The notes beneath the pieces are model-generated. The model saw nothing but the letters and a program-made list of their open reading frames with translations, made no database searches and had not been told where the DNA came from. The translations under genes and the position numbers were made by a program. Positions 13,720 through 42,850 of a DNA stretch of 64,000 nucleotides are shown here, piece by piece. Source of the DNA: Candidatus Saccharimonadales bacterium (GTDB lineage Bacteria > Patescibacteriota > Saccharimonadia > Saccharimonadales > JAGPDM01); contig JBGAVT010000002.1 in assembly GCA_044227985.1 (NCBI GenBank), positions 19,452 through 83,451 on the forward strand. The letters are read 5' to 3'. Within the stretch, counting starts at the first letter, position 1; each line of letters opens with the position of its first letter.

Positions 13720-13796
13720 AGGGGTGTAGCTCAGTTGGCTAGAGCGTCGGTCTCCAAAACCGAAGGCCTCGGGTTCGAGTCCCGCCACCCCTGCCA
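13720..13796 (+). tRNA. tRNA-Trp (anticodon CCA), CCA end encoded
   Basis: Acceptor AGGGGTG/CACCCCT. Anticodon stem TCGGT/ACCGA with loop CTCCAAA. T loop TTCGAGT. Confidence 0.88.
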
Positions 13797-20985: not shown

Positions 20986-22413
20986 ATGAAGTCATTTGAC
21001 CTAGTTGTAATCGGGGCAGGATCAGGTGGGTTAACCGCAGCTACCTACGCCAAAAAACTAGGCGCAAGTGTCGCGATGATAGAAAAACGAGATGTGCTCG
21101 GTGGTGAATGCCTCCAAAATGGTTGTGTGCCGAGTAAAACACTCATACATGCTTCAAAACGATACTACCAGTCAGATAGTTCATCTAAATTCGGCGTTAA
21201 CGGAAAGCCAACTTTAGATTTCGAAGATTTAAACAAAAGTATTGTTCGTGCCATACGCCGAATCGAAGATAGGGACGAAAATGACGAACATTTTGAAAAG
21301 CTTGGCGTCAAAGTTTTTCATGGTGAAGCTAAATTTATTGACGGAAACACTGTTGAAGTTAACGGTGAGAAAGTCCACGGTCGAAGATTTATAATTGCTA
21401 CTGGCAGCAGGCCTCGAGTAGTTGATGTTCCTGGACAAGAACACCTCGATGTTTATTCAAATGAAACAATCTTTAACATTAAGAAGAAACCCGAAAGTAT
21501 GGCTATCTTAGGTGGTGGGGTAATCGGCTGTGAAATTGGTTGCGCCTACAACTTCCTTGAGACTAATATCACTATTTTTGAACGATATGATCATCTTTCT
21601 CTTAGAGTCGACCCGGAAATTGCTAAATTCGTAACCTCCAAATTCACTGAACGTGGCATAGATGTCGTTACGAACTCAAATCTTGAGAAAATTACTAAGA
21701 AAAAAGGCGACAAGTTGGCTACACTTCATTATAAAAAAGGGAAACAAAGCTTGACCTCGAAAGCTGATAGTCTGTTCATGGCAATAGGTCGAATCCCAAA
21801 CACTGACCTTGATCTTGAAAACGCTGGCGTCGAATACACGAGCCGAGGCATAACCATTAACGGCTACGGACAGACCTCTCGTAAGAATATCTGGGCAGTT
21901 GGAGATGTAACAGGCATGGCTGGCTTCACGCATGTAGCCGGTGAGCAGGCATACTATGCCGTTGTTCACGCAATGTTTGGCCTAAGGCATAAAGTCAGTC
22001 TGCACGCATTACCATTTGTCATCTTTACGCGCCCTGAAGTCGCCCACGTTGGTAAAACAGAAAAAGACTTAAAGGCAGAGGGGATTCCTCATGTAGTCCG
22101 TGCGATGGATTATTCAGAAATAGATAGAGCAATGATTGAAGACAAGCCTGGAATGATAAAAGTTATGCTTGATAAGCGAGATCGTATTCTTGGTGCTACT
22201 GTTGCTGGCTCACAAGCGACCGAACAGATTGGTACTTTTGTCTTAGCTATGAGCAACCGTTTAACAATGCGAGACATTGCTAAAACGATTCTTCCGTACC
22301 CAACCTATGCCATGGCACCAAAAACATTGGCAGCTAATCACATCACTGAAAAAGTGATTAATAATAAGCTTGGTGAACACGCTATGAGAATTTTCCGTCA
22401 GCTACGTAGATAA
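20986..22413 (+). CDS. class I pyridine nucleotide-disulfide oxidoreductase (dihydrolipoyl dehydrogenase / glutathione-reductase-like)
   Basis: The ATG at 20986 (MKSFDLVVIGAGSGG) is used. The redox-active disulfide motif GGECLQNGCVPSK, a second Rossmann motif (ILGGGVIGCE) and a C-terminal dimerisation domain are present. Confidence 0.75.
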   Translation: MKSFDLVVIGAGSGGLTAATYAKKLGASVAMIEKRDVLGGECLQNGCVPSKTLIHASKRYYQSDSSSKFGVNGKPTLDFEDLNKSIVRAIRRIEDRDENDEHFEKLGVKVFHGEAKFIDGNTVEVNGEKVHGRRFIIATGSRPRVVDVPGQEHLDVYSNETIFNIKKKPESMAILGGGVIGCEIGCAYNFLETNITIFERYDHLSLRVDPEIAKFVTSKFTERGIDVVTNSNLEKITKKKGDKLATLHYKKGKQSLTSKADSLFMAIGRIPNTDLDLENAGVEYTSRGITINGYGQTSRKNIWAVGDVTGMAGFTHVAGEQAYYAVVHAMFGLRHKVSLHALPFVIFTRPEVAHVGKTEKDLKAEGIPHVVRAMDYSEIDRAMIEDKPGMIKVMLDKRDRILGATVAGSQATEQIGTFVLAMSNRLTMRDIAKTILPYPTYAMAPKTLAANHITEKVINNKLGEHAMRIFRQLRR

Positions 22414-22483
22414 AGCACTTGACCGGACAGACAATTCGGCCTATAGTTGACAGAAGCGAGCCATTGTAGGCTCTTTTTAATTT

Positions 22484-22936
22484 GTGGAGAAAACATGGCG
22501 AAAGCTAAAAAAACTGAAAAAAAAACCAGAAAGCACTAAAGCCGAAACAAAAGTACGGGTTATTAAAGCTAGTGATGCGGCGCCTCTTCGCAAAAAAACT
22601 AGCAGTAAAACTACAAAATCAGCGAAGTCATCTAAGCAAACTATCGTAAAAACAAGCAAGGACACTAAGAAAACTAGTAAAAAAGCAGATAAATCGATAA
22701 AAGAGCCAATGGTGCTCGAATCAAAAGCTAGTGACAAACCGAGCCTCGACGATAGGATTAAAACCTATTTCAAAGGCTCAGTCTCTGAAATTAGGAAAGT
22801 TACTTGGCCAGGAAGAAAAGAATCCTGGAATCTGACTATTTCTGTTTTGGTATTTAGTGGATTGTTCGCAGCATTTACTACCGTGATTGATTACGGTATT
22901 GTTCAGGCATTAGAAAAATTCGTATTAGGAAAATAA
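22484..22936 (+). CDS. secE: preprotein translocase subunit SecE with long Lys-rich N-terminal extension; start ambiguous
   Basis: The C-terminus YFKGSVSEIRKVTWPGRKESWNLTISVLVFSGLFAAFTTVIDYGI is typical of SecE. It lies directly upstream of nusG. See the finding on the A9 tract and the start codon. Confidence 0.8.
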   Translation: MEKTWRKLKKLKKKPESTKAETKVRVIKASDAAPLRKKTSSKTTKSAKSSKQTIVKTSKDTKKTSKKADKSIKEPMVLESKASDKPSLDDRIKTYFKGSVSEIRKVTWPGRKESWNLTISVLVFSGLFAAFTTVIDYGIVQALEKFVLGK

Positions 22937-22965
22937 CAAATTAGTAACTAGGAGTTTAAAGTTTT

Positions 22966-23499
22966 ATGAGTAAAAAAGCATTTTGGTACGCCATCCACAC
23001 AAGCAGTGGCTATGAAGAAAAAGTAAAAGAGAGTATTCGCCAGCGAGCCGAAAGCCTCGACATGGCCGATAAGATTCTCGACGTCATGGTTCCGAAAGAA
23101 AAACAGATTGAAATCAAGAACGGCAAGCGAAAAGTTGTTGAAAAACGTATTTTCCAAGGCTATGTCTTTGTGCACATGACAATGAGTGAAGATGTTTGGT
23201 ATGTCGTCCGAAATACACCTAATGTAACTGGTTTCGTCGGAAGCAACAGTAATGACCCGACCCCAGTAGATGAAGAAGAGATTGATAAAATTAAGAAACG
23301 TATGGGCGTTGAAGATCCAACCCATAAACTCGACTTTGCTGAAGGCGAAGTTGTTGGTATTATCGACGGTCCCTTCAAAGGCTTCGATGGTGCAGTCAGT
23401 GAAGTTGACTCAGTCAAGGGTAAGATCAAAGTACTGGTTAACCTTTTCGGTCGAGAAACCCCTGTCGAACTTGATGGCCTCCAAGTTAAGAAGTCTTAG
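22966..23499 (+). CDS. nusG: transcription termination/antitermination factor NusG
   Basis: FWYAIHTSSGYEEKVKESI marks the NGN domain. The KOW domain reads GEVVGIIDGPFKGFDGAVSEVD...KIKVLVNLFGRETPVEL. Confidence 0.95.
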   Translation: MSKKAFWYAIHTSSGYEEKVKESIRQRAESLDMADKILDVMVPKEKQIEIKNGKRKVVEKRIFQGYVFVHMTMSEDVWYVVRNTPNVTGFVGSNSNDPTPVDEEEIDKIKKRMGVEDPTHKLDFAEGEVVGIIDGPFKGFDGAVSEVDSVKGKIKVLVNLFGRETPVELDGLQVKKS

Positions 23500-23611
23500 T
23501 TAAATTCAGTAAAAACAACAAGTAATACAAAGTGCTTGCATAATAATCATATATGTGATATTATTATGTTGTTAAATAATTTCCACATTACGTGGAGCAA
23601 GGACAAAAATA

Positions 23612-23881
23612 ATGAATAAAAATCAACGAACACATGAGCACGAACCAACTGATGGCGAGGGTTTTGTCGCTCCAGGTGAGCATAGCAATGAAGGTGGACT
23701 CGGGCTCGAAGCCCATTTACCTAACCAGGATACAACTTTAGTTGACCAAACAGCAAAAAAACCTGAATTTAGTGTTGAGAAGTCTCAAACCCATTCAACC
23801 GCATTTGAAGGTGCAACTCCTATAGAAAATACTGTAAAAGAAAACAGTGATCCGTGGGGGCAGTGGCCCGACAAGCTTTAA
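23612..23881 (+). CDS. hypothetical acidic, probably disordered 89-aa protein
   Basis: No motif recognised. Candidate promoter TTGCAT, 17-nt spacer, TATTAT near 23536-23564, with a GGAG-like RBS. Confidence 0.35.
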   Translation: MNKNQRTHEHEPTDGEGFVAPGEHSNEGGLGLEAHLPNQDTTLVDQTAKKPEFSVEKSQTHSTAFEGATPIENTVKENSDPWGQWPDKL

Positions 23882-24255
23882 ACGTAAAGTGTTGCGTCTC
23901 TTTTTCCAATCACTTAACCTTTGAAAATTATTTTTTCTGAGAGTACATTTAAGTATTCATTGATATGAAACATAGACTTTACCTAGCTTCAAAACAGACG
24001 TCGTTTAATTTCTACTACCAATTTTTAATAGTTTTTTCTCAGTCTAAAGACGTCACACAGAATGATTGACAATGTATTTTACGAGTAATTTTCAAGAATA
24101 TTAAAATAACTGATTGTGTCTATTAAATTTTGTCTATTTCTTAAGCCATATCTACGTGTGTCCTGAGCTTTAATCAGAACAATTTTTTATTAGTTTTATG
24201 TGTAAAATCAAAAACTTCATACAGTTGTATAGTATATACATTTTAATCGATATTA

Positions 24256-24285
24256 TTGACGTATCATGAAATAATCTTATATAAT
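24256..24285 (+). promoter_or_regulatory. candidate promoter of the 745-aa orphan gene
   Basis: TTGACG (24256-24261), 18-nt spacer, TATAAT (24280-24285), at the end of a 433-nt very AT-rich spacer. Confidence 0.45.
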
Positions 24286-24314
24286 AAAATTATTACTAAT
24301 AGGATTATTAAACA

Positions 24315-26552
24315 ATGGCTCGAGATTTAGATTTTCTGCATAAGGACATCACAATGGATGCTGGTGAAAGAGCAATCTGTGCGATTAGGGTTAGCCATTT
24401 GTTACAGGAAATTAAGGCAACTGGGTATGAAACTTCAGGTTTCGACATTCAATATTTTCCAGATACCGGAATAGACAACCCTAGGCAAAGAATAAATAGG
24501 TTCCATCCATCTGTAGAGGATCAAAATGGTAGGAACTGGCAGTTCTGTGCCATTCCTGACGGTGAAGCTACGGCGATTGGTATTGCTTATGGTAATGCAG
24601 TGGTACCAATATTTTCTCTGTTAACCAAAGAATCTTCTGACCCTACACAGAGAAATTGCGTTACATTGATGCCTATACCAAGACTAATTGATGACGGAGC
24701 TACTAAAACTGTTGATGATTGGCTAGAAAATATGGTTACGACTAATGATGATGAACGCAAGCCGCTTTACGAACTTGAAGACGGCGCAGTTGTTCCGTCA
24801 GCTCAAATTGTTGAAAGTATCCTACATTTAGTCGGCAGACCTTCGGCATTGGAAGACCATCCCGAGGGATACGTGTTGACCGCACCTCAACTCTTTGGAG
24901 TGCTAAATTTGCAACATTACATCGATGTCACAGGTCTTACGGAAGAAATTATAAAATCTGAAGAATCCGTTGCGCTCTCAAAAACAGAAAAACTCGAGCC
25001 AGTCGAAGAGGCACTATCTGTAGCCTCAGCTATAGTCGAAGCTGAAAGAAAGCTGACTGAACAAGCAGAGCCTAAAGGATGGGTCATCAAGAGTAGCTTG
25101 GGGGAACGCGGACGTCGTCTTGAATCAACTGCTGTAACTACTCTAAATTTTGTACCCGGGGAAGGCCTAGCGATTACTACAACTGTATCTCCGAAACATA
25201 GTGATAAATATTCTTATGGTGTGGCAACCATCAGAGATGGCAAGGTTGTGTATCTTGATAATAGAAGAGAAGTAAGCGAGGAACAAATAAAAAGACTTCA
25301 GCTAGAAGTGGCAGAAAGAATTGGCGCTCAAACAAAAGTGGTTTTGCCTAAACCAACTGAACGTGAATACAATGGTGAAGAATCTTTGAATGCTGAAGTA
25401 GAAAAAGCTAATGTTGTTGATTATAGTGAAGCTGATATAACTCAGGGCAAACAACTATTAGTAGATAGGCTTGAATTATTAGCGGCTAGTAGTGGAAGAG
25501 GTAGCAACTGGCAACGTGCAGTCCAAGTTTCAGAAGAAATAGATCAATTCATTCGAGGTTTTGAGCTGCTCCCTAATACTTTATTCGATCTAAATGGTTG
25601 CGATAGTGAAAAAATGAAAAGTTCAGTATTATTAGAATCTCTTCTGCAAGAATACCCACCGAGACATAGATTTACTGGAACTTTTAATCTCGAAGAGAGC
25701 TCTCTGATATATGATTTGAACTATGCCTTAAGTGCCGATATCGCCTTAGTGGAAACAGAAACAGCCAGATTTGGTTTTATGCCTAACTTTGCCACTCTCC
25801 ATCTATTAAATGCAGGTGCGCAAAAAGTCCAAGCAACTAATAAAAAAAACGAAAATAGGTTATTAGTTATAGCCAATGATGGTAGAGCAGCTGCTAGAAA
25901 AGGTGGCCCAGTAATTTTATATACAGAGGAAAACAACAGGTTGTACAACATACATGATGGTGTAGACGAGATAAGGTTCTATTGGGTAAGAGGTAAAAAT
26001 TCAGGATTTAATCCTCGTTCAGTCGGGAATCTTCCCGGTAATACAATTGCGCACTTCGTGAAAACAGAATCAAATGGCAAAAACGCCAGGGTTATGGCGA
26101 TAAATGGACAGACAGTAAGAATCGAAGATAGCTCCTATGATGAAAAAAAACGAAAACTTGTAAAAGATCGCTCTAGTCGGAAAAGAAAAAAAGCTCTCGT
26201 TTCAGAAACCGATAAGATAATAGATGATATGCGTGAAGTCTGCTCTCGTGTAGGTATAAATTTTGGTTACATTAGTGCTGAATATGCAACAGAGCTGCCC
26301 CACACTTACACTAAGACAGGGCTAAACAAAAGAGCGATTGGAGAATTGGTAAAATATGCGACGATGTTTGGCGGAGGTGGGGCTGGGGTAACTGCAGCAG
26401 CTCATCTTGCAGTTGAATCTCCATTCATAAACCCAGTAATTGCTGGTCTATTTGGCGGAGGCGTAGCGTTAAAAAAATCACGAATTCTAAAAAGAAGTAT
26501 TGATGCTTTTAGAGCAAAAAAAGCACTCAAAACAGCCGATTCCGACAAATAA
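24315..26552 (+). CDS. orphan 745-aa protein with C-terminal glycine-zipper membrane anchor
   Basis: Long uninterrupted ORF with no signal peptide and no motif I recognise. The K/R-rich stretch KKRKLVKDRSSRKRKK is followed near the C-terminus by FGGGGAGVTAAAHLAV...VIAGLFGGGVAL and a basic tail. Confidence 0.7.
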   Translation: MARDLDFLHKDITMDAGERAICAIRVSHLLQEIKATGYETSGFDIQYFPDTGIDNPRQRINRFHPSVEDQNGRNWQFCAIPDGEATAIGIAYGNAVVPIFSLLTKESSDPTQRNCVTLMPIPRLIDDGATKTVDDWLENMVTTNDDERKPLYELEDGAVVPSAQIVESILHLVGRPSALEDHPEGYVLTAPQLFGVLNLQHYIDVTGLTEEIIKSEESVALSKTEKLEPVEEALSVASAIVEAERKLTEQAEPKGWVIKSSLGERGRRLESTAVTTLNFVPGEGLAITTTVSPKHSDKYSYGVATIRDGKVVYLDNRREVSEEQIKRLQLEVAERIGAQTKVVLPKPTEREYNGEESLNAEVEKANVVDYSEADITQGKQLLVDRLELLAASSGRGSNWQRAVQVSEEIDQFIRGFELLPNTLFDLNGCDSEKMKSSVLLESLLQEYPPRHRFTGTFNLEESSLIYDLNYALSADIALVETETARFGFMPNFATLHLLNAGAQKVQATNKKNENRLLVIANDGRAAARKGGPVILYTEENNRLYNIHDGVDEIRFYWVRGKNSGFNPRSVGNLPGNTIAHFVKTESNGKNARVMAINGQTVRIEDSSYDEKKRKLVKDRSSRKRKKALVSETDKIIDDMREVCSRVGINFGYISAEYATELPHTYTKTGLNKRAIGELVKYATMFGGGGAGVTAAAHLAVESPFINPVIAGLFGGGVALKKSRILKRSIDAFRAKKALKTADSDK

Positions 26553-26670
26553 AAAACTTGAGCTATAAGCTAACATCTGTTAATATGGCAGACGTTACGC
26601 AAAAAATATGAATATGCTTCACTTAATATTCAGTCAATTATTGCAATCAAGAAAATTAGGAGTTTAGATT

Positions 26671-27108
26671 ATGGCAAAGAAGAAAAAGAAGATATCGGCA
26701 CGAGTAAAGTTCCGCGTACCAGCTGGTAATGCGACCCCTGGGCCACCTGTTGGTTCAACACTCGGTCAGCATGGACTTCAAGCGCAAGATTTTATCAGTC
26801 AATACAACGACCGAACCTCAGACCTAAAAGGTCAGGGCGATGTAACAGTAAAAATGAACATTTTTGATGATCGCACCTTTACCTTTACAACTAGTGGTAT
26901 TCCTGCAGATGATTTAATTCGTAAAGCCCTCAATATCAAAAAAGGTAGCGGAGTTCCTCAGAAGGATAAAGTTGGCAAGCTTACACAAGCACAACTTACT
27001 GAAATCGCTGAGATGAAAATGAGTCAGACTAATGCTAATGATATCGAAGCAACAAAGGCCCAAATCGCTGGAACTGCTCGAAGCATGGGTGTTGAAGTAG
27101 AAAAATAA
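26671..27108 (+). CDS. rplK: 50S ribosomal protein L11
   Basis: KFRVPAGNATPGPPVGSTLGQHGLQAQDFISQYN is the canonical L11 N-terminal domain. Confidence 0.95.
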   Translation: MAKKKKKISARVKFRVPAGNATPGPPVGSTLGQHGLQAQDFISQYNDRTSDLKGQGDVTVKMNIFDDRTFTFTTSGIPADDLIRKALNIKKGSGVPQKDKVGKLTQAQLTEIAEMKMSQTNANDIEATKAQIAGTARSMGVEVEK

Positions 27109-27116
27109 TTTTAATA

Positions 27117-27156
27117 TGTGGGAGATGTTTAAAACATCGATTGCACCACAGGAAGG
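27117..27156 (+). promoter_or_regulatory. candidate L1-binding mRNA structure in front of rplA
   Basis: Outer stem TGTGG (27117-27121) / CCACA (27146-27150). It encloses the GA / GATTGCA internal loop and a 6-bp hairpin GATGTT-TAA-AACATC. The structure abuts the SD GGAAGG (27151-27156). The GUGGGAG...CACCAC arrangement recalls the 23S L1-stalk site. Confidence 0.35.
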
Positions 27157-27165
27157 TCATATATA

Positions 27166-28191
27166 ATGGCAAAGAAAGCAGATTTACTAGAAGAAGCCAA
27201 GAAGCTTAACCTAGAAGTAACAGAAAAGAATACAATTGCCGAGATAACCGAAGCGATTAAGAATGCAGAGCAACCAGAAGAAACGTCTGAGACTCCAAGT
27301 GTTTCTAAGGAAACCAAGGAAACTGAAGAAAAGAAGTTCACAAAAGCCGGTAAACACAGTAAGAAAGCTGCTGAAGAAGCTGAAGCTGAAGAAGCTAAAG
27401 AAGAGCGCAAAGCTAAGATTGCTGCTGGTGAACTTGATCCTTCAACTAACGAAGATGGTGATGTTGTTTCTAGTAAAGGCCCAGTGCCGATTCCTCGTGC
27501 ACGTGTTGAACGTCGTAGTAAGCGCTACCAAGCTACTGTTACTAATATCGACAGAGATAAGACGTATGATGTTGATCAAGCAGTCCAAATGGTACAAAAA
27601 GCTAGTACTGTCAAATTTGACGCTAGTATCGAGCTACACATGAACTTAAATATTAATCCGAAGCACGCCGATCAAAACATCCGTGGAAGCATGGTTCTTC
27701 CACATGGTAATGGTAAGACGCAACGCGTTGCAGTCTTCGCAGCTGAAGACCTTCACAAAGACGCTAAAGCAGCTGGTGCGGACGCTGTCTATGCAGATGA
27801 ACTGCTTGATAAGCTAAAAGCCGAAGAAATTGATTTCGACGTACTCGTTTCTACGCCTGAAAATATGGCTAAGCTTGGTCGCTATGCGAAACTGCTCGGT
27901 CCAAAAGGCCTTATGCCTAATCCAAAGAGCGGTACCGTGACTAAGGACGTTGCTAAGGCCGTTTCAGAAGCTAAAGCTGGTCGAGTTGAATACAGAGTCG
28001 ATAAGGCTGGAATCATGCACCTCGCTGTCGGTAAAGTTAGTTTTAAAAACGACCAGTTGATGCAAAATATCGATGCTGTTATAAAGGTTGTTAAAGATGC
28101 TCGACCTGCAAGCGTTAAATCAGATTACATCAAGTCTATCTCAATCAATAGCACTATGGGGCCAGGCGTTAAAATAAATCTCTCAGCGTAA
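27166..28191 (+). CDS. rplA: 50S ribosomal protein L1 with an N-terminal extension of about 115 aa
   Basis: The canonical L1 part starts near [26 protein letters not shown]...[23 protein letters not shown]. Residues 1 to about 115 are an extra HeH-like motif plus an acidic, Lys-rich linker. Confidence 0.9.
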
Positions 28192-31404: not shown

Positions 31405-33627
31405 ATGGCAAAGGGCAAATACATTGTAATCGAAGGCGCAGATGGTAGCGGTAAAACTACCATGGCGAGAAATATTCAGGCCTTACTCTTTCAAAAACTA
31501 GGTATCAAAGCAGTTATTCTGCGCGAGCCAGGCAGTACGGAATTTGCCGACAAAATCCGCGAAGTTCTAAAAAGTACGACTAGTCGTAGCCCTGAGGCAA
31601 ACGTCTTAGCTTTTAATGCCGCACGTGCCGACACAATGCGTGAAGTTGCGAAGCATATCGAAAACGGTGGCTGGGTTATTGCTGATCGAAGCTGGATTTC
31701 CACTGTGGTGTATCAAGGTTACGGCGAAGGGCTTGATATCGACAATCTGCGACGAATCAGCCAGTACGCGGCTGCAGCTCAAGCAGACTTGACTGTAGTC
31801 TTAGATGCACCAGTTGATGTTCGACGAGCTCGTAACCACAAACGTGGTGGTAGTGATTATTTCGAGAACCAATCAGATGACTTCCATGAACGAGTGCGTC
31901 AAGGCTATTTGGAGGAAGCTGAATTTCTTGGTTTACCATTAATTAATGCTAACGATAGTGAATCTAGTATCGCTACCCAGCTATGGGGTATGGTTGAAGA
32001 GATTACTGATATTAAAAGTAAAACTAAAAAGACTAAACGTAACCCATTTGTTGAAAAGACAGAACATGGCATGCAGCCGACTGAGCTCGGCAATCAATGG
32101 CTTGGTAATGTGCTGAGTAATCCAAATAAAAATGCCTATGTTTTCAATAACAATCTCAGCCCAATCACCATCGCAGCAGCAATGGCACGACTCAGTCGTC
32201 GTGCCGACGATATGCGAGTAACAATTCTTGACGAATTCAGCCAGATCGAAGGCAAGGACGATTCATTGCTGCGTCGGGTGATTACAGCTTACGGTGATGA
32301 TTCAGTCCAACAATTAACAGGGATCCATGCTGTCGTAGAGAATGCTAGCAACCTTTTGACGAAGAAACTTGAGTGGGGAAGACTGGCTGCCTATCTTGAA
32401 CAATCAACCCGATATATCTATTACGACCGTAAAACACGAGAAGGTAAGTACCGCTATTATACGCCAACAGAGTTCGATGAATCGACCACTAAAATTTATA
32501 ATGAAACGCTTGACCAGATCTTCGATCTTTACTCTATAGTTGTACACGAATTAACAGATTTTATTACAGCTCGAGACGAAACCCCTAAAGAAGAACGAGA
32601 TATCGCCTGGAAGGGGGCGATTCGCGCTCAGGCCTGCGACGTGGCACGAGCGATGCTTCCTGTGGCTACAACATCTACTGTTGGGCTGTATGCAAGTGGG
32701 CAGGCCTATGAAAGCTTAGTCATGCACTTGATGAGTGATGAGCTAGAGGAATCACGTGCAACCGGAGAAGACCTCCTTGAAGCTGGTCGCACCGTAGCAG
32801 CAACATTCCTAGAGCGAGCTGATAAACCAAGTCGTGGTGGAGCAATGCAAGCATATAGAGCCAATACAAGAAATGCCGTCGCAGAAATCACCGAGAAACT
32901 GCTGTCTAATACTGGCTATAGCGACGATAAACGAGACGTGCATTTAGTCAGTACATCCATGCGTAACGAACTGGATGTCGTACCGTATATCCTTTACGAA
33001 GCCTCCGAACTATCACTTGATGAGTTACAAAAAGAAGTAGCCGATTGGAGCTATGATAAAAAACTAGAAGTCTTTAATGCCTACATTGGAGAGAGATTAA
33101 ACCGACGACACAAGCCAGGGCGGGCATTTGAGCATATCGAGTACAACTGGGATTTAATGTGTGACTACGGTATTTTCCGCGATTTACAGCGTCATCGCAT
33201 GGTTGAAGGTCTTCAGTGGCAGAAGCTTACACCACGTTACGGCTATGAAACACCAAAATTAATTGAAGATGCTAACTTAACCGAAGCATACGACCAAGCT
33301 TTTGAGCTGAGCCAGCATCTTTTTAGTCGGCTTCAAGCTTTAGGCTTATATGAACAAGCGCAGTATGCAACGTTAATGGGTCACCGTATGCGGTGGAAAA
33401 TTTCTTTCAATGCTCGTGAAGCTTTTCATTTCATGGAACTACGAACAGCCCCACAAGGCCACCCAGCATATCGAGCACTTGTGAAAACCATGCATGAGCA
33501 GCTTTCAGAAATCCACCCACTGACAGGGGGCGCTATGAAGTTTGTTAATCAAGACGAAGACGCCGCACTAACTCGTCTCGCAGCCGAACGCTACACTCAG
33601 TTTAAGCTCAACCAACTAGGCCAGTGA
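31405..33627 (+). CDS. fusion protein: thymidylate kinase plus tandem ThyX-like (flavin-dependent thymidylate synthase) domains
   Basis: The N-terminal ~200 aa is Tmk (YIVIEGADGSGKTT, VIADRSWISTVVYQG, LID RRARNHKRGG). Two ThyX-like repeats follow. Repeat A has LEWGRLAAYLEQSTRY with the RHR triad lost. Repeat B has FRDLQRHRMVEGLQWQKLTPRY and WKISFNAREAFHFMELRTAPQGH. Confidence 0.8.
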   Translation: MAKGKYIVIEGADGSGKTTMARNIQALLFQKLGIKAVILREPGSTEFADKIREVLKSTTSRSPEANVLAFNAARADTMREVAKHIENGGWVIADRSWISTVVYQGYGEGLDIDNLRRISQYAAAAQADLTVVLDAPVDVRRARNHKRGGSDYFENQSDDFHERVRQGYLEEAEFLGLPLINANDSESSIATQLWGMVEEITDIKSKTKKTKRNPFVEKTEHGMQPTELGNQWLGNVLSNPNKNAYVFNNNLSPITIAAAMARLSRRADDMRVTILDEFSQIEGKDDSLLRRVITAYGDDSVQQLTGIHAVVENASNLLTKKLEWGRLAAYLEQSTRYIYYDRKTREGKYRYYTPTEFDESTTKIYNETLDQIFDLYSIVVHELTDFITARDETPKEERDIAWKGAIRAQACDVARAMLPVATTSTVGLYASGQAYESLVMHLMSDELEESRATGEDLLEAGRTVAATFLERADKPSRGGAMQAYRANTRNAVAEITEKLLSNTGYSDDKRDVHLVSTSMRNELDVVPYILYEASELSLDELQKEVADWSYDKKLEVFNAYIGERLNRRHKPGRAFEHIEYNWDLMCDYGIFRDLQRHRMVEGLQWQKLTPRYGYETPKLIEDANLTEAYDQAFELSQHLFSRLQALGLYEQAQYATLMGHRMRWKISFNAREAFHFMELRTAPQGHPAYRALVKTMHEQLSEIHPLTGGAMKFVNQDEDAALTRLAAERYTQFKLNQLGQ

Positions 33628-34255: not shown

Positions 34256-34478
34256 TGTATTTTTTAATATATATCTGCTATTTTAGTTTAGCACTCAAGT
34301 TTTCGGTCAACAATCTTGTTTTCAACAAGGAGCATAGACGATAATCCAGTGACTAGGTAAGCTGCATATTATATGGGTAATTAGATTCATTGTTATTTCT
34401 TTAATTTACCTTCACTCTCATGGCTAACGAACCAATATATTTCTATCTAAAATTGTTAAAATATACAATTTTCGCTTT

Positions 34479-34507
34479 TTGACAAAAGACGCTCAATAAA
34501 GTATCAT
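34479..34507 (+). promoter_or_regulatory. promoter of the leuA leader
   Basis: TTGACA (34479-34484), 17-nt spacer, TATCAT (34502-34507). The leader-peptide ATG lies 7 nt downstream. Confidence 0.6.
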
Positions 34508-34514
34508 CGGAAAT

Positions 34515-34592
34515 ATGAATTTTTTGAATAAAAGAATTGATCAGCTGCTACTAATCGCGCTTGTGCGTGATGAGCTGGAGCCTGCTTACTAA
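34515..34592 (+). CDS. candidate branched-chain amino acid leader peptide (25 aa)
   Basis: MNFLNKRIDQLLLIALVRDELEPAY has 6 Leu codons, including the run CTG-CTA-CTA followed by Ile-Ala-Leu-Val. Alternative hairpins and a terminator follow it upstream of leuA. Confidence 0.5.
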   Translation: MNFLNKRIDQLLLIALVRDELEPAY

Positions 34593-34622
34593 GCCACGAC
34601 ACAAGCCTAAAATATTAAAAAG

Positions 34623-34651
34623 GGTTCCAGTTTCGGAACCATTTTTAATTT
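34623..34651 (+). terminator. attenuator terminator in the leuA leader
   Basis: GGTTCC-AGTTTC-GGAACC followed by ATTTTTAATTT. It lies about 100 nt upstream of the leuA start. Confidence 0.6.
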
Positions 34652-34743
34652 ACAATATTTTAGGAGAATTTCAATGAGCGACACAGAGAAACAAATGCAA
34701 TTTAGGGCAATTTCACGTATCATTAAGCGTGAACAAATCGTAA

Positions 34744-36321
34744 TTGGAGATGATGGTGCCGTACCGAGAAGCTAATAAAGTTTTAATTTTTGACACGACC
34801 TTGCGTGATGGCGAACAAAGTCCTGGTATTTCTCTGAACAAAACAGAAAAACTAACAATCGCACACGCTCTGGCTGAGCTTGGTGTCGACGTCATCGAAG
34901 CTGGATTTCCAATTGCTAGTATCGGTGATTTTGAAGCCGTTCAAGCAATTGCGCGAGAAGTGCATGGTCCTACTATTTGTGGACTTGCTCGAGCGGTCAA
35001 CGGTGATATCGACCGTGCATGGGAGGCGATCAAAGACGCTGAAAAACCTCGTATCCACACCTTTATTGCAACCAGCAAGGTTCACATGGAGCATAAGCTG
35101 AAGATGACACCGGAAAAAGTCGCGGAAAAGGCCAATGCAGCTGTTGCTCGCGCTAAAAGCTATACTGACGATGTCGAGTTTAGTCCCGAAGACGCTGCTA
35201 GAACAAGCCTAGACGTCATGCTGGCCGTTATACAGGCGGCGGTTGATGCTGGAGCAACAACTATTAACATCCCTGATACTGTTGGTTACACAACACCACA
35301 CGAGTTTGCGGAACGAATTGCTGAGGTTAGGAAAAACATAAAAGGTGATTATATAATTTCCACTCATTGCCATAATGATCTTGGCATGGCGACTGCAAAC
35401 AGCTTGGCTGGAGTAGGTGCTGGTGCCCGGCAAGTAGAAGTGGCGGTCAACGGAATCGGCGAACGGGCAGGTAATGCGGCTTTAGAAGAGATTGTTATGG
35501 CTATTAAGCTGAAGTCGGATAGCTACGGCGGTGTTTATACTGAAGTCGATTCAAAGCTTATCACTCGGACAAGCCGACTTGTCAGTAATCTAACTGGCTA
35601 TCCGGTTCAGTACAACAAAGCGATTGTTGGCCGCAATGCTTTTTCTCATGAGTCGGGTATTCATCAAGATGGAGTTATCAAGAAGCGCGAAACTTACGAG
35701 ATTATAGACCCAGCAGATGTTGGCGCTGGTGAAAGCCAAATTATCCTTGGAAAACACTCTGGCCGTGCGGCAATTTCATCTGCACTAAAAAAATTAGGTC
35801 ACGAGCTAGACAAAAACCAAATGGATGAAGTTTTCATTGATTTCAAAGCCTTAGCTGATCAAAAAAATAATGTGTCTAATGCTGATTTAAGCGCAATTGT
35901 TGACTCCACCGTTCTTCACTTAAACGATACAAACAATCGCTACGAGTTAGAGTCCGCTTCTTTTGCGCTTAATGATGACGAAAAGCCGTCGGCTACTATC
36001 AAAATCAAAACACCTAACGGCGAAACTATCGAACAATCTGCAGTCGGTAACGGCATGGTAGATGCGGTTTGCACCGCTATCCGTGAAGTAGTTGGGCTTA
36101 AGATTGAACTTGTCGAGTATCTCGTCCAGGCAGTAACTGAAAGTATTGATGCACTTGCGTCCGTTAATATACAGCTACGTTCACACGATAAAGTCGCAAC
36201 TGGGCGAGGCAGTGATACTGATGTTGTCCGTGCTTCTGCAAAAGCCTACCTCGACGCGGTAAATCGACTACTCACGATTGATGATGATAGAAATATGAAA
36301 ACGAAGGCTCGGGGACAGTAA
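34744..36321 (+). CDS. leuA: 2-isopropylmalate synthase / citramalate synthase family enzyme
   Basis: IFDTTLRDGEQSPG, HCHNDLGMATANSLAG and a C-terminal LeuA-dimer regulatory domain are present. The likely start is GTG 34756, 6 nt after GGAG, or ATG 34750/34753. Confidence 0.85.
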   Translation: MEMMVPYREANKVLIFDTTLRDGEQSPGISLNKTEKLTIAHALAELGVDVIEAGFPIASIGDFEAVQAIAREVHGPTICGLARAVNGDIDRAWEAIKDAEKPRIHTFIATSKVHMEHKLKMTPEKVAEKANAAVARAKSYTDDVEFSPEDAARTSLDVMLAVIQAAVDAGATTINIPDTVGYTTPHEFAERIAEVRKNIKGDYIISTHCHNDLGMATANSLAGVGAGARQVEVAVNGIGERAGNAALEEIVMAIKLKSDSYGGVYTEVDSKLITRTSRLVSNLTGYPVQYNKAIVGRNAFSHESGIHQDGVIKKRETYEIIDPADVGAGESQIILGKHSGRAAISSALKKLGHELDKNQMDEVFIDFKALADQKNNVSNADLSAIVDSTVLHLNDTNNRYELESASFALNDDEKPSATIKIKTPNGETIEQSAVGNGMVDAVCTAIREVVGLKIELVEYLVQAVTESIDALASVNIQLRSHDKVATGRGSDTDVVRASAKAYLDAVNRLLTIDDDRNMKTKARGQ

Positions 36322-42639: not shown

Positions 42640-42675
42640 CCATCAGTTGACGCGTATTCGATAATAAGCTATTAT

Positions 42676-42813
42676 TGTCTTAGTTTTGCCAAAGACAGTA
42701 GCAGCAGAAATGCTTAATTCGCTACCGAGGACGAACGAACAGTCACTGTTTGTTTTGTGATAACACACATCGTTTTAGTCTTTGGTGAACAAAAGCCAAA
42801 GACTTTTTGTTTT
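42676..42813 (+). promoter_or_regulatory. candidate rplJ (L10) leader with alternative structures and intrinsic terminator
   Basis: Terminator AGTCTTTGG (42777-42785) / CCAAAGACT (42796-42804) followed by TTTTGTTTT, 37 nt before the rplJ ATG. An upstream copy of CCAAAGAC (42689-42696) can pair with the terminator's left arm, and is itself sequestered by the hairpin TGTCTT (42676-42681) / AAGACA (42692-42697). Confidence 0.55.
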
Positions 42814-42850
42814 AGCTAAAAATAATTAATAAGGTGAAAGGAAATAATCA

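Follow-up and report, generated by a model that had tools for sequence, protein, structure and literature searches.

The junction between nusG and rplK on contig JBGAVT010000002.1 of a Candidatus Saccharimonadales bacterium holds an open reading frame (ORF) of 745 codons, ORF745, which is described here within a stretch of 64,000 nt (the window, 40.6% G+C over 64 kb). As far as can be judged from sequence, ORF745 is a real and maintained protein-coding gene. By alignment, it forms a genuine but very small and fast-diverging family with a single distant homologue, P0002, and the junction that it occupies is, by its content among relatives, a variable accessory slot in Saccharibacteria. The account favoured here, with a confidence somewhat above even, is that ORF745 is an accessory gene with its own promoter, belonging to a two-member family and housed in a clade-wide slot, whose product would consist of a cytoplasmic body and a C-terminal hairpin in or at the membrane. 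The source organism is placed as an uncultured Saccharibacterium (TM7) because ribosomal protein L1 of the window shares 87% identity with that of a 'Candidatus Saccharibacteria' metagenome-assembled genome (MAG) and 56% with that of a Saccharimonadales MAG.

The databases scanned for ORF745 comprised Pfam, NCBIfam, PHROGs, PADLOC, PDB sequences (by profile) and collections of phage, plasmid and viral contigs. No significant match was obtained in Pfam, NCBIfam, PHROGs or PADLOC, or with the ORF745 profile among PDB sequences, and the protein was not found in 50,697 phage records, 72,556 plasmid records or the IMG/VR contigs. The one homologue came from an exhaustive phmmer scan of 1.84 billion cluster representatives, which returned P0002 (823 aa, E 2e-16) and nothing else. 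In a word-indexed search of 5.8 billion proteins ORF745 finds itself alone, and searches of the same kind with P0002 or with a two-sequence profile likewise returned only the query each time. Additionally, profile scans of metagenome and viral contigs yielded no further homologues, and a local profile search detected no paralogue among 3,679 ORFs of related loci and all ORFs of the window. A prediction made from the letters of the window alone (the sequence-only reading) had described the protein as an orphan in which no motif could be recognised. The family databases indeed offer no usable match, and the profile search that it proposed as a check gave no clear homology to a known family; the word orphan holds in the sense that no described family includes the protein and has to be given up in so far as P0002 exists.

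The alignment with P0002 is collinear from end to end at 26–27% identity, with conserved blocks at residues 1–200, 300–360, 420–460 and 560–720. The last of these takes in an NG..VRIE motif, a basic patch, a YA..LP.TY.K motif and two hydrophobic segments, and the basic tail that follows is conserved as well. Since L5, F7 and L8 are among the residues common to both proteins, this collinearity supports the annotated start codon at 24315. A chance ORF can be set aside: a frame of 745 codons does not arise in that way, and P0002 follows it collinearly at about 26% identity. Its codon usage is native to the genome (synonymous-codon log-likelihood of -1.10 vs -1.08 ± 0.05), with a G+C content at third codon positions of 0.286 compared with 0.357 ± 0.038. 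ORF745 is covered by 16 contigs of the same species from 13 samples, and the complete 745-codon frame is present in 15 of them; in the remaining one, L107, the contig end cuts the ORF after its first nine bases. Only two polymorphic sites occur across these contigs, one synonymous and one I/L705. Decay in close relatives, which together with absence of expression had been named as grounds for doubting the gene, is not seen within the species.

To our knowledge, other bacteria almost universally keep nusG and rplK close together, and the sequence-only reading had regarded ORF745 as an insertion into one of the most conserved adjacencies known. In Saccharibacteria this premise fails. A survey of the slot was made on 80 metagenomic loci whose NusG is 74–82% identical to that of the window, with gaps measured in 61–62 of them. 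The distance from nusG to rplK has a median of 251 nt, reaches 250 nt or more at 31 of 61 loci and extends to 1,875 nt, whereas the gap from secE to nusG has a median of 58 nt, never attains 250 nt (0/62) and does not exceed 183 nt. At three loci from outside the Candidate Phyla Radiation the nusG–rplK gap is 95–203 nt. The ORFs found in the wide gaps are mostly unrelated to each other, and a Pfam scan of ten of them left eight without a family, the exceptions being a sigma-70 factor and a 23S-rRNA-IVS protein. The closest relative that was available, L007, is homologous to the window only from 26594 onwards, which leaves 77 nt to the rplK ATG; on the upstream side its slot is occupied by a different ORF, TPR-like and on the minus strand. 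The junction is read as a variable accessory slot because about half of the relatives hold at least 250 nt with unrelated ORFs and because the content of L007 differs. Conserved flanks enclosing content that differs among relatives, the defining traits of a core-flanked hotspot, are both found here, and the 3.2-kb occupant of the window is the largest seen while being the same in kind as the others. Such variability means that the location of ORF745 says little about its function. The proposal that the gene is a leading candidate for an undescribed function thus keeps its footing in a real gene of no described family with its own promoter-like site, and loses part of its argument from location. 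In the literature, no paper mentioning both Saccharibacteria and nusG was found.

Two further observations concern the slot. The approximately 77 nt directly before rplK (26594–26670; L007 889–954) are conserved even though the sequence farther upstream differs. This leader (GTTACGCAA..ATGAATAT..GCTTCA..) has no Rfam match at the gathering threshold and may be an autoregulatory leader of the L11-L1 operon. Among the surveyed loci, L041 (6569–7197) and L047 (6569–7188) come from separate studies and have a pair of slot ORFs in common, of which the first is 100% identical. The second shows about 50% identity, with the divergence beginning directly after the sequence QYDTELPAT, so the hydrophobic C-terminal half appears hypervariable in this pair. 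The same ORF resembles the motif region of ORF745 in that QYDTELPAT is followed by hydrophobic segments; an hhalign comparison gave P 2.7e-4, uncorrected for the roughly 70 candidates, and a probability of 42%, which makes a relation to ORF745 a weak lead. That slot ORFs might as a rule be small membrane proteins with two segments, from one of which the ORF745 hairpin could have come, was rejected on a non-significant enrichment (19/40 vs 146/404, p = 0.17; two or more segments compared with background, p = 0.34). A C-terminal profile, run against the slot ORFs, gave E values of at least 1.2.

Comparison of strains places a boundary at the left edge of the slot. Single-nucleotide polymorphisms (SNPs) occur between strains at 10–34 per kb from the copper-ATPase gene through nusG, and 13 of them fall within the 112 nt between nusG and orf89, the small ORF that precedes ORF745; from orf89 through ORF745 and rplKA to about 29800 the density is 0–1 per kb. 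The change is sharp, at 23591–23612, in a comparison of few strains. Each of the two ORF745 alleles is seen with both nusG haplotypes, which suggests that homologous recombination is frequent in the population, with a probable breakpoint exactly at the left edge of the slot. Across a wider interval (window 14313–36553 compared with L001–L006), the SNPs form mosaic blocks in which 0 per kb stands beside 15–34 per kb. Saccharibacteria are naturally competent (PMC10633639), and flank-mediated replacement is therefore a plausible route of slot turnover; the slot contents have probably been exchanged or replaced via homologous recombination in the flanks. No convincing flanking direct repeats or element ends were detected at the locus. 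A 48-nt inverted repeat, 71% complementary (23536–23583 and 24268–24315), brackets orf89 and the spacer behind it and is probably due to chance, both arms being very AT-rich.

The gene order established from the ORF list and Pfam is secE, nusG, orf89, a 433-nt gap, ORF745, rplK and rplA (Table 1), which agrees with the order, ORF coordinates and spacer length initially reported. The small ORF orf89 has no match in Pfam, NCBIfam, PHROGs or PADLOC; its codon fit is good, its sequence is identical across strains and it is called as a gene on 13 contigs. The spacer between orf89 and ORF745 was rightly singled out as extremely AT-rich: no other 433 nt anywhere in the window are as low in G+C, and its poorest 60 nt contain 15% G+C. 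Its description as the longest non-coding stretch needs to be relaxed to one of the two longest, since the region upstream of leuA (34256–34743) is comparable at 418–488 nt. The longest ORF in the spacer spans no more than 34 aa. An RNA element in the spacer was considered and rejected, as there is no Rfam match at E values up to 1 and the folding is no better than that of shuffled sequences (z-score 0.45). The sequence proposed as a promoter at the 3' end of the spacer is present and is the best promoter-like site within 22300–27300, an interval in which the total number of such sites is not above that of shuffled sequences. Two contigs, L106 and L107, begin near the end of the spacer, at window positions 24277 and 24324.

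Table 1. Features of the secE–rplA region and of the ORF745 product, in window coordinates.
Feature	Position	Strand	Basis or remark
secE	22484..22936	+	Pfam SecE 1e-16, residues 93-147
nusG, left conserved flank of the slot	22966..23499	+	Pfam NusG 5e-30
nusG-orf89 intergenic region, putative strain-level recombination boundary	23500..23611	.	13 SNPs/112 nt, L002/L004 vs window
orf89, small acidic ORF, 89 codons	23612..23881	+	isoelectric point (pI) 4.8
AT-rich spacer with putative ORF745 promoter at its 3' end	23882..24314	.	433 nt, 25.6% G+C
Sigma-70-type promoter-like site TTGACG-18-TATAAT	24256..24285	+	11/12 matches
AGGA Shine-Dalgarno-like motif	24301..24304	+	10 nt 5' of ATG, read from sequence
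ORF745, 745 codons, 82.5 kDa, pI 5.7	24315..26552	+	ORF list; homologue P0002
N-terminal conserved region, aa 1-200, Cys C22/C78/C115 common with P0002	24315..24914	+	28-38% identity windows, best block
Basic patch KKRKLVKDRSSRKRKK, aa 611-626	26145..26192	+	R619, S620, R622, R624 conserved in P0002
Juxta-hairpin motif AEYATELPHTYTK (P0002: AQYAQPLPETYKK)	26277..26315	+	alignment with P0002
Hydrophobic Gly/Ala-rich segment 1 MFGGGGAGVTAAAHLAV, aa 684-700	26364..26414	+	19-residue Kyte-Doolittle 1.1-1.2
Hydrophobic Gly-rich segment 2 FINPVIAGLFGGGVAL, aa 704-719	26424..26471	+	15-residue Kyte-Doolittle 1.65, Hessa sum +4.2
Strongly basic C-terminal tail, aa 720-745	26472..26549	+	net charge +5 to +7 per 18 residues, both family members
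rplK promoter and leader, right slot boundary	26553..26670	+	L007 homology starts at 26594
rplK	26671..27108	+	Pfam L11
rplA	27166..28191	+	Pfam L1

The basic patch, the two glycine-zipper-like segments and the basic tail described in the sequence-only reading are all present in the protein. ORF745 and P0002 have in common two hydrophobic stretches with an E-x-P sequence between them and basic residues on either side of the putative hairpin. Segment 1 of ORF745 displays a ladder of small residues (G687/G691/A695/A699) that is not kept in P0002, and the ladder of segment 2 (A710/G714/A718) recurs as A/S/A in the homologue. The hydropathy of these segments is modest. The best C-terminal segment of ORF745 scores 1.65 on the Kyte-Doolittle scale over 15 residues with a Hessa sum of +4.2, and that of P0002 scores 1.87 with +1.0, compared with 2.27 and -0.75 for the transmembrane helix of SecE from the same genome. 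Overall, the Hessa sums of the ORF745 segments lie at +4.2 to +5.9 against about -0.5 to -0.75 for SecE, and the Kyte-Doolittle values at 1.1–1.2 over 19 residues and 1.65 over 15 residues against 2.15–2.27 for SecE; the P0002 counterpart of segment 1, IGFTASPAIISGVAILAEV, reaches 1.68. The N-terminus of ORF745 is charged and non-hydrophobic, and no signal peptide is visible by inspection. Segment-against-segment local alignments revealed no internal repeats in ORF745 (all z <1.7 vs shuffles). Two other assignments were tried and rejected. The tail is moderately amphipathic only, which spoke against reading it as an amphipathic helix. A GRAM/PH-like domain was suggested by a segment of P0002 that scores 17.1 bits (E 0.005), below the gathering threshold of 23.6 for Pfam PF02893; ORF745 shows no such match, and a profile search of PDB for this lead produced noise only (E ~1).

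Because basic residues flank the hairpin on both sides, the positive-inside rule predicts a topology in which the N-terminus and the C-terminus both lie inside, and the same flanks together with the lack of a visible signal peptide make it moderately likely that the body of about 680 residues is cytoplasmic. The tail-anchored topology first suggested is weakened and has no firm footing: the hydrophobic region near the C-terminus consists of two short segments rather than one, with a hydropathy far below that of the SecE helix. A cytoplasmic body disfavours an exposed envelope or host-contact factor, the role initially put forward, unless a dedicated secretion route exists, and no evidence for such a route was found for ORF745.

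According to the favoured account, ORF745 would be transcribed from its own promoter within a slot that lies between a secE-nusG unit and an rplKA unit and is bounded by highly conserved core genes. The contents of the slot would be swapped by recombination in the flanks, leaving the promoter and leader of rplK intact. The predicted body of about 680 residues would comprise the conserved N-terminal region with its three Cys, beta-rich regions and the basic patch, followed by the YA..LP.TY.K motif, a hairpin of Gly/Ala/Ser-rich segments with E-x-P between them, and the basic tail; the hairpin may dip into or span the cytoplasmic membrane from the inside. Three points weigh against this account. 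Both segments are marginally hydrophobic and may not enter the membrane. The division into domains has no structural support, as the mean AlphaFold2 pLDDT (predicted local distance difference test) is 32.6 with a single sequence and 32.5 with the two-sequence alignment. Finally, the exchange route rests on few strains and the slot survey, with no reconstructed transfer event.

The first of these points leads to the alternative that ORF745 is fully soluble and cytoplasmic, its segments being buried helices or linkers and its basic patch and tail binding nucleic acid or an acidic partner. This alternative draws on segment hydropathy under the usual transmembrane thresholds and far below that of SecE, on the presence of a His and a Glu in segment 1 or at its end, and on the conservation of the patch and tail. 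It has to account for a hydrophobic pair that has been kept with its E-x-P turn and basic flanks at about 26% identity, a pattern typical of a helical hairpin, and for the greater hydrophobicity of the segments in P0002 (Kyte-Doolittle 1.68–1.87, Hessa sum +1.0). We regard a wholly soluble protein as unlikely, though deserving of serious attention.

Quite improbable, in our judgement, is that ORF745 is a delivered effector that damages membranes, with the N-terminal part as a carrier and the C-terminal glycine zipper depolarising the membrane of a host or competitor; the basic C-terminal tail could then serve as the secretion signal for a type IV-like system. The small-xxx-small ladders in both segments, the second of them conserved as A/S/A in P0002, are compatible with such a role, as are the variable slot and the narrow distribution of the gene. 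Saccharibacteria are, moreover, epibionts, and Patescibacteria carry type IV secretion systems (PMC12102498). Several features nevertheless argue against delivery. Pfam identifies neither an LXG domain nor a trafficking domain of any other type, a signal peptide is not visible, and none of the Pfam glycine-zipper families is matched. Neither neighbourhood contains secretion genes or a candidate immunity gene, the next gene being rplK 118 nt downstream of ORF745 and Peptidase_S66 about 400 nt after P0002. In addition, the gene is near-invariant in the population, unlike typical polymorphic toxins. An extension of the same idea, in which ORF745 and P0002 represent a new class of Saccharibacteria effectors delivering a zipper hairpin into the membrane of the actinobacterial host or a rival without a type VI (T6SS) or type VII (T7SS) secretion system, is a long shot. 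Delivery would perhaps make use of the type IV system of Patescibacteria, the basic tail acting as signal, and if this were true, the nusG–rplK slot would be a clade-wide cassette site in which host-interaction genes are swapped by natural transformation.

The genomic setting of P0002 bears on the two remaining explanations. P0002 is not located at nusG–rplK, which answers in the negative the question, posed as a check, of whether the family always sits at this junction. About 135 nt upstream of its gene is a sequence that was read as the 3' end of a tRNA, with T-arm, acceptor strand and CCA, although ARAGORN made no tRNA call on the 30-nt fragment concerned. A promoter-like site of its own, TTGACT-17-TATTAT, can be read upstream, where no orf89-like gene was found; on the 3' side the Peptidase_S66 gene is followed by several uncharacterised genes and then by hisS, tig and clpP. 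The P0002 contigs L016 and L017 open with the putative tRNA end at positions 1–30 (…GGTTCAAGTCCTCTCTCGCGCACCA), and in L015 a G+C-rich sequence (1–125) is joined at the same GCACCA point at which L016 and L017 start. Integration at this point, an assembly break induced by a repeat and a chimeric contig could each explain the junction.

A position beside a tRNA 3' end, a classic integration site at which the P0002 contigs also break, would suit the view that ORF745 came in as cargo of a mobile element, prophage or anti-phage defence island or is what remains of one. According to this view, the AT-rich spacer that adjoins the accessory gene would be an island boundary, and the variability of the slot would fit as well. 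It is nonetheless very unlikely: the ORF745 locus contains no integrase, transposase or flanking direct repeats, its codon usage is native, and PHROGs, PADLOC, the phage and plasmid records and the IMG/VR contigs gave no match. No model of PADLOC-DB matches ORF745, P0002 or orf89. The last possibility, that ORF745 is functionally coupled to its neighbours, for instance as a membrane tether with NusG, SecE or the L11/L1 stalk, is next to negligible: it has in its favour position alone, a near-identical block among strains from orf89 to DHFR that includes rplKA, and a basic patch that could bind RNA, and it is largely refuted by P0002 not being next to nusG or rplK, with relatives holding unrelated genes or nothing in the slot, ORF745 having its own promoter-like site and rplK keeping its own leader.

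Other parts of the window also depart from the usual arrangement. The canonical cluster of tRNA-Trp, secE, nusG, rplKA and rplJL is broken in three places. Between tRNA-Trp (13720–13796) and secE lie about 8.7 kb with genes for a CsoR-like repressor, a P-type ATPase, a histidine kinase, a GT2 glycosyltransferase and a pyridine-nucleotide oxidoreductase, and about 14.6 kb separate rplA from the L10 leader (42671–42818). Among relatives, rplJ is seldom found within 6 kb of rplA; the 9 loci where it is have at least 1.8 kb between the two genes. Two proteins encoded near the slot have N-terminal extensions. That of L1 (27166–27500) comprises about 110 Ala/Glu/Lys-rich residues, the Pfam L1 domain beginning at residue 144; it starts with MAKKA(D/E)LLE(E/K)A..L.L(E/K) and is conserved in two other Saccharibacteria (L007 1679–2010, L008 2212–2530). 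That of SecE (22484–22760) comprises about 90 Lys/Ser/Thr-rich residues ahead of the Pfam SecE domain, and the SecE of L008 is much shorter at 102 aa. Farther downstream, positions 31405–33627 encode a 740-aa fusion of thymidylate kinase and ThyX (Pfam Thymidylate_kin, AAA_28 and Thy1). The fusion gene is among the most strain-divergent, with about 21 SNPs per kb, and is called as two ORFs of 501 and 222 aa in L099. In the region upstream of leuA (34256–34775), where 418–488 nt are non-coding, a 33-codon ORF (34674–34775) overlaps the leuA start, and the region may be a leader or attenuator.

About half of the genes of Patescibacteria have no assigned function, and there are few leads on what differs between epibionts. 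An ORFan in such a genome is expected; the useful outcomes are the slot and a C-terminal module that can be tested. The finding by itself reveals no new mechanism. The C-terminal architecture conserved in the ORF745/P0002 family is directly testable for membrane binding or toxicity, and the slot would be easy to amplify or to recover from metagenomes in order to collect strain-specific accessory genes. It may also offer a convenient neutral insertion site in naturally competent Saccharibacteria.

The C-terminal region invites comparison with several known systems. Similar to LPXTG sortase substrates, ORF745 has an LP.T motif, a hydrophobic stretch and a basic C-terminus; unlike them, its LPHTY (LPETY in the other family member) lacks the Gly, and the motif and the hydrophobic part are about 20 charged residues apart. 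A sortase signal at LP.TY was rejected in view of the two hydrophobic segments, the long tail, the lack of a visible signal peptide and the absence of a match to the sorting signals of NCBIfam. Glycine-zipper hairpins with two transmembrane segments are represented by Rick_17kDa_Anti (PF05433), Gly-zipper_Omp (PF13488) and Gly-zipper_YMGG (PF13441), families composed mostly of small lipoproteins or outer-membrane proteins with signal peptides. ORF745 resembles them in its two adjacent short Gly/Ala-rich segments, which contain (G/A/S)xxxGxxx(G/A/S) ladders, and differs from them in that the hairpin comes last in a protein of about 680 residues that has no visible signal peptide. None of these families was listed for ORF745 (E values up to 1) or for P0002 (up to 5). 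In comparison with tail-anchored proteins, the likeness lies in the lack of a visible N-terminal signal and a hydrophobic region within the last 62 residues, the difference in the presence of a second segment, the marginal hydrophobicity and a basic tail of 26 residues whose predicted location is the cytoplasm.

Among toxins, a C-terminal glycine zipper is needed for the toxicity of the T7SS toxins TelE (PMC10434224) and EsxX (PMC12744356), and Tse4 has been named as a T6SS glycine-zipper toxin (PMC10240207). Like these proteins, ORF745 combines a large N-terminal part with a C-terminal zipper-like module, and its owner contacts other bacteria. Unlike them, it has no LXG or trafficking domain, no adjacent immunity gene and no nearby secretion locus, and its diversity in the population is very low. 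The slot, for its part, stands closest to a concept of comparative genomics. Chromosomal hotspots are sites at which accessory genes are flanked by core genes. The nusG–rplK slot departs from them in carrying no mobility genes and resembles them in its conserved flanks, its variable and mostly orphan content and a putative recombination breakpoint in the flank.

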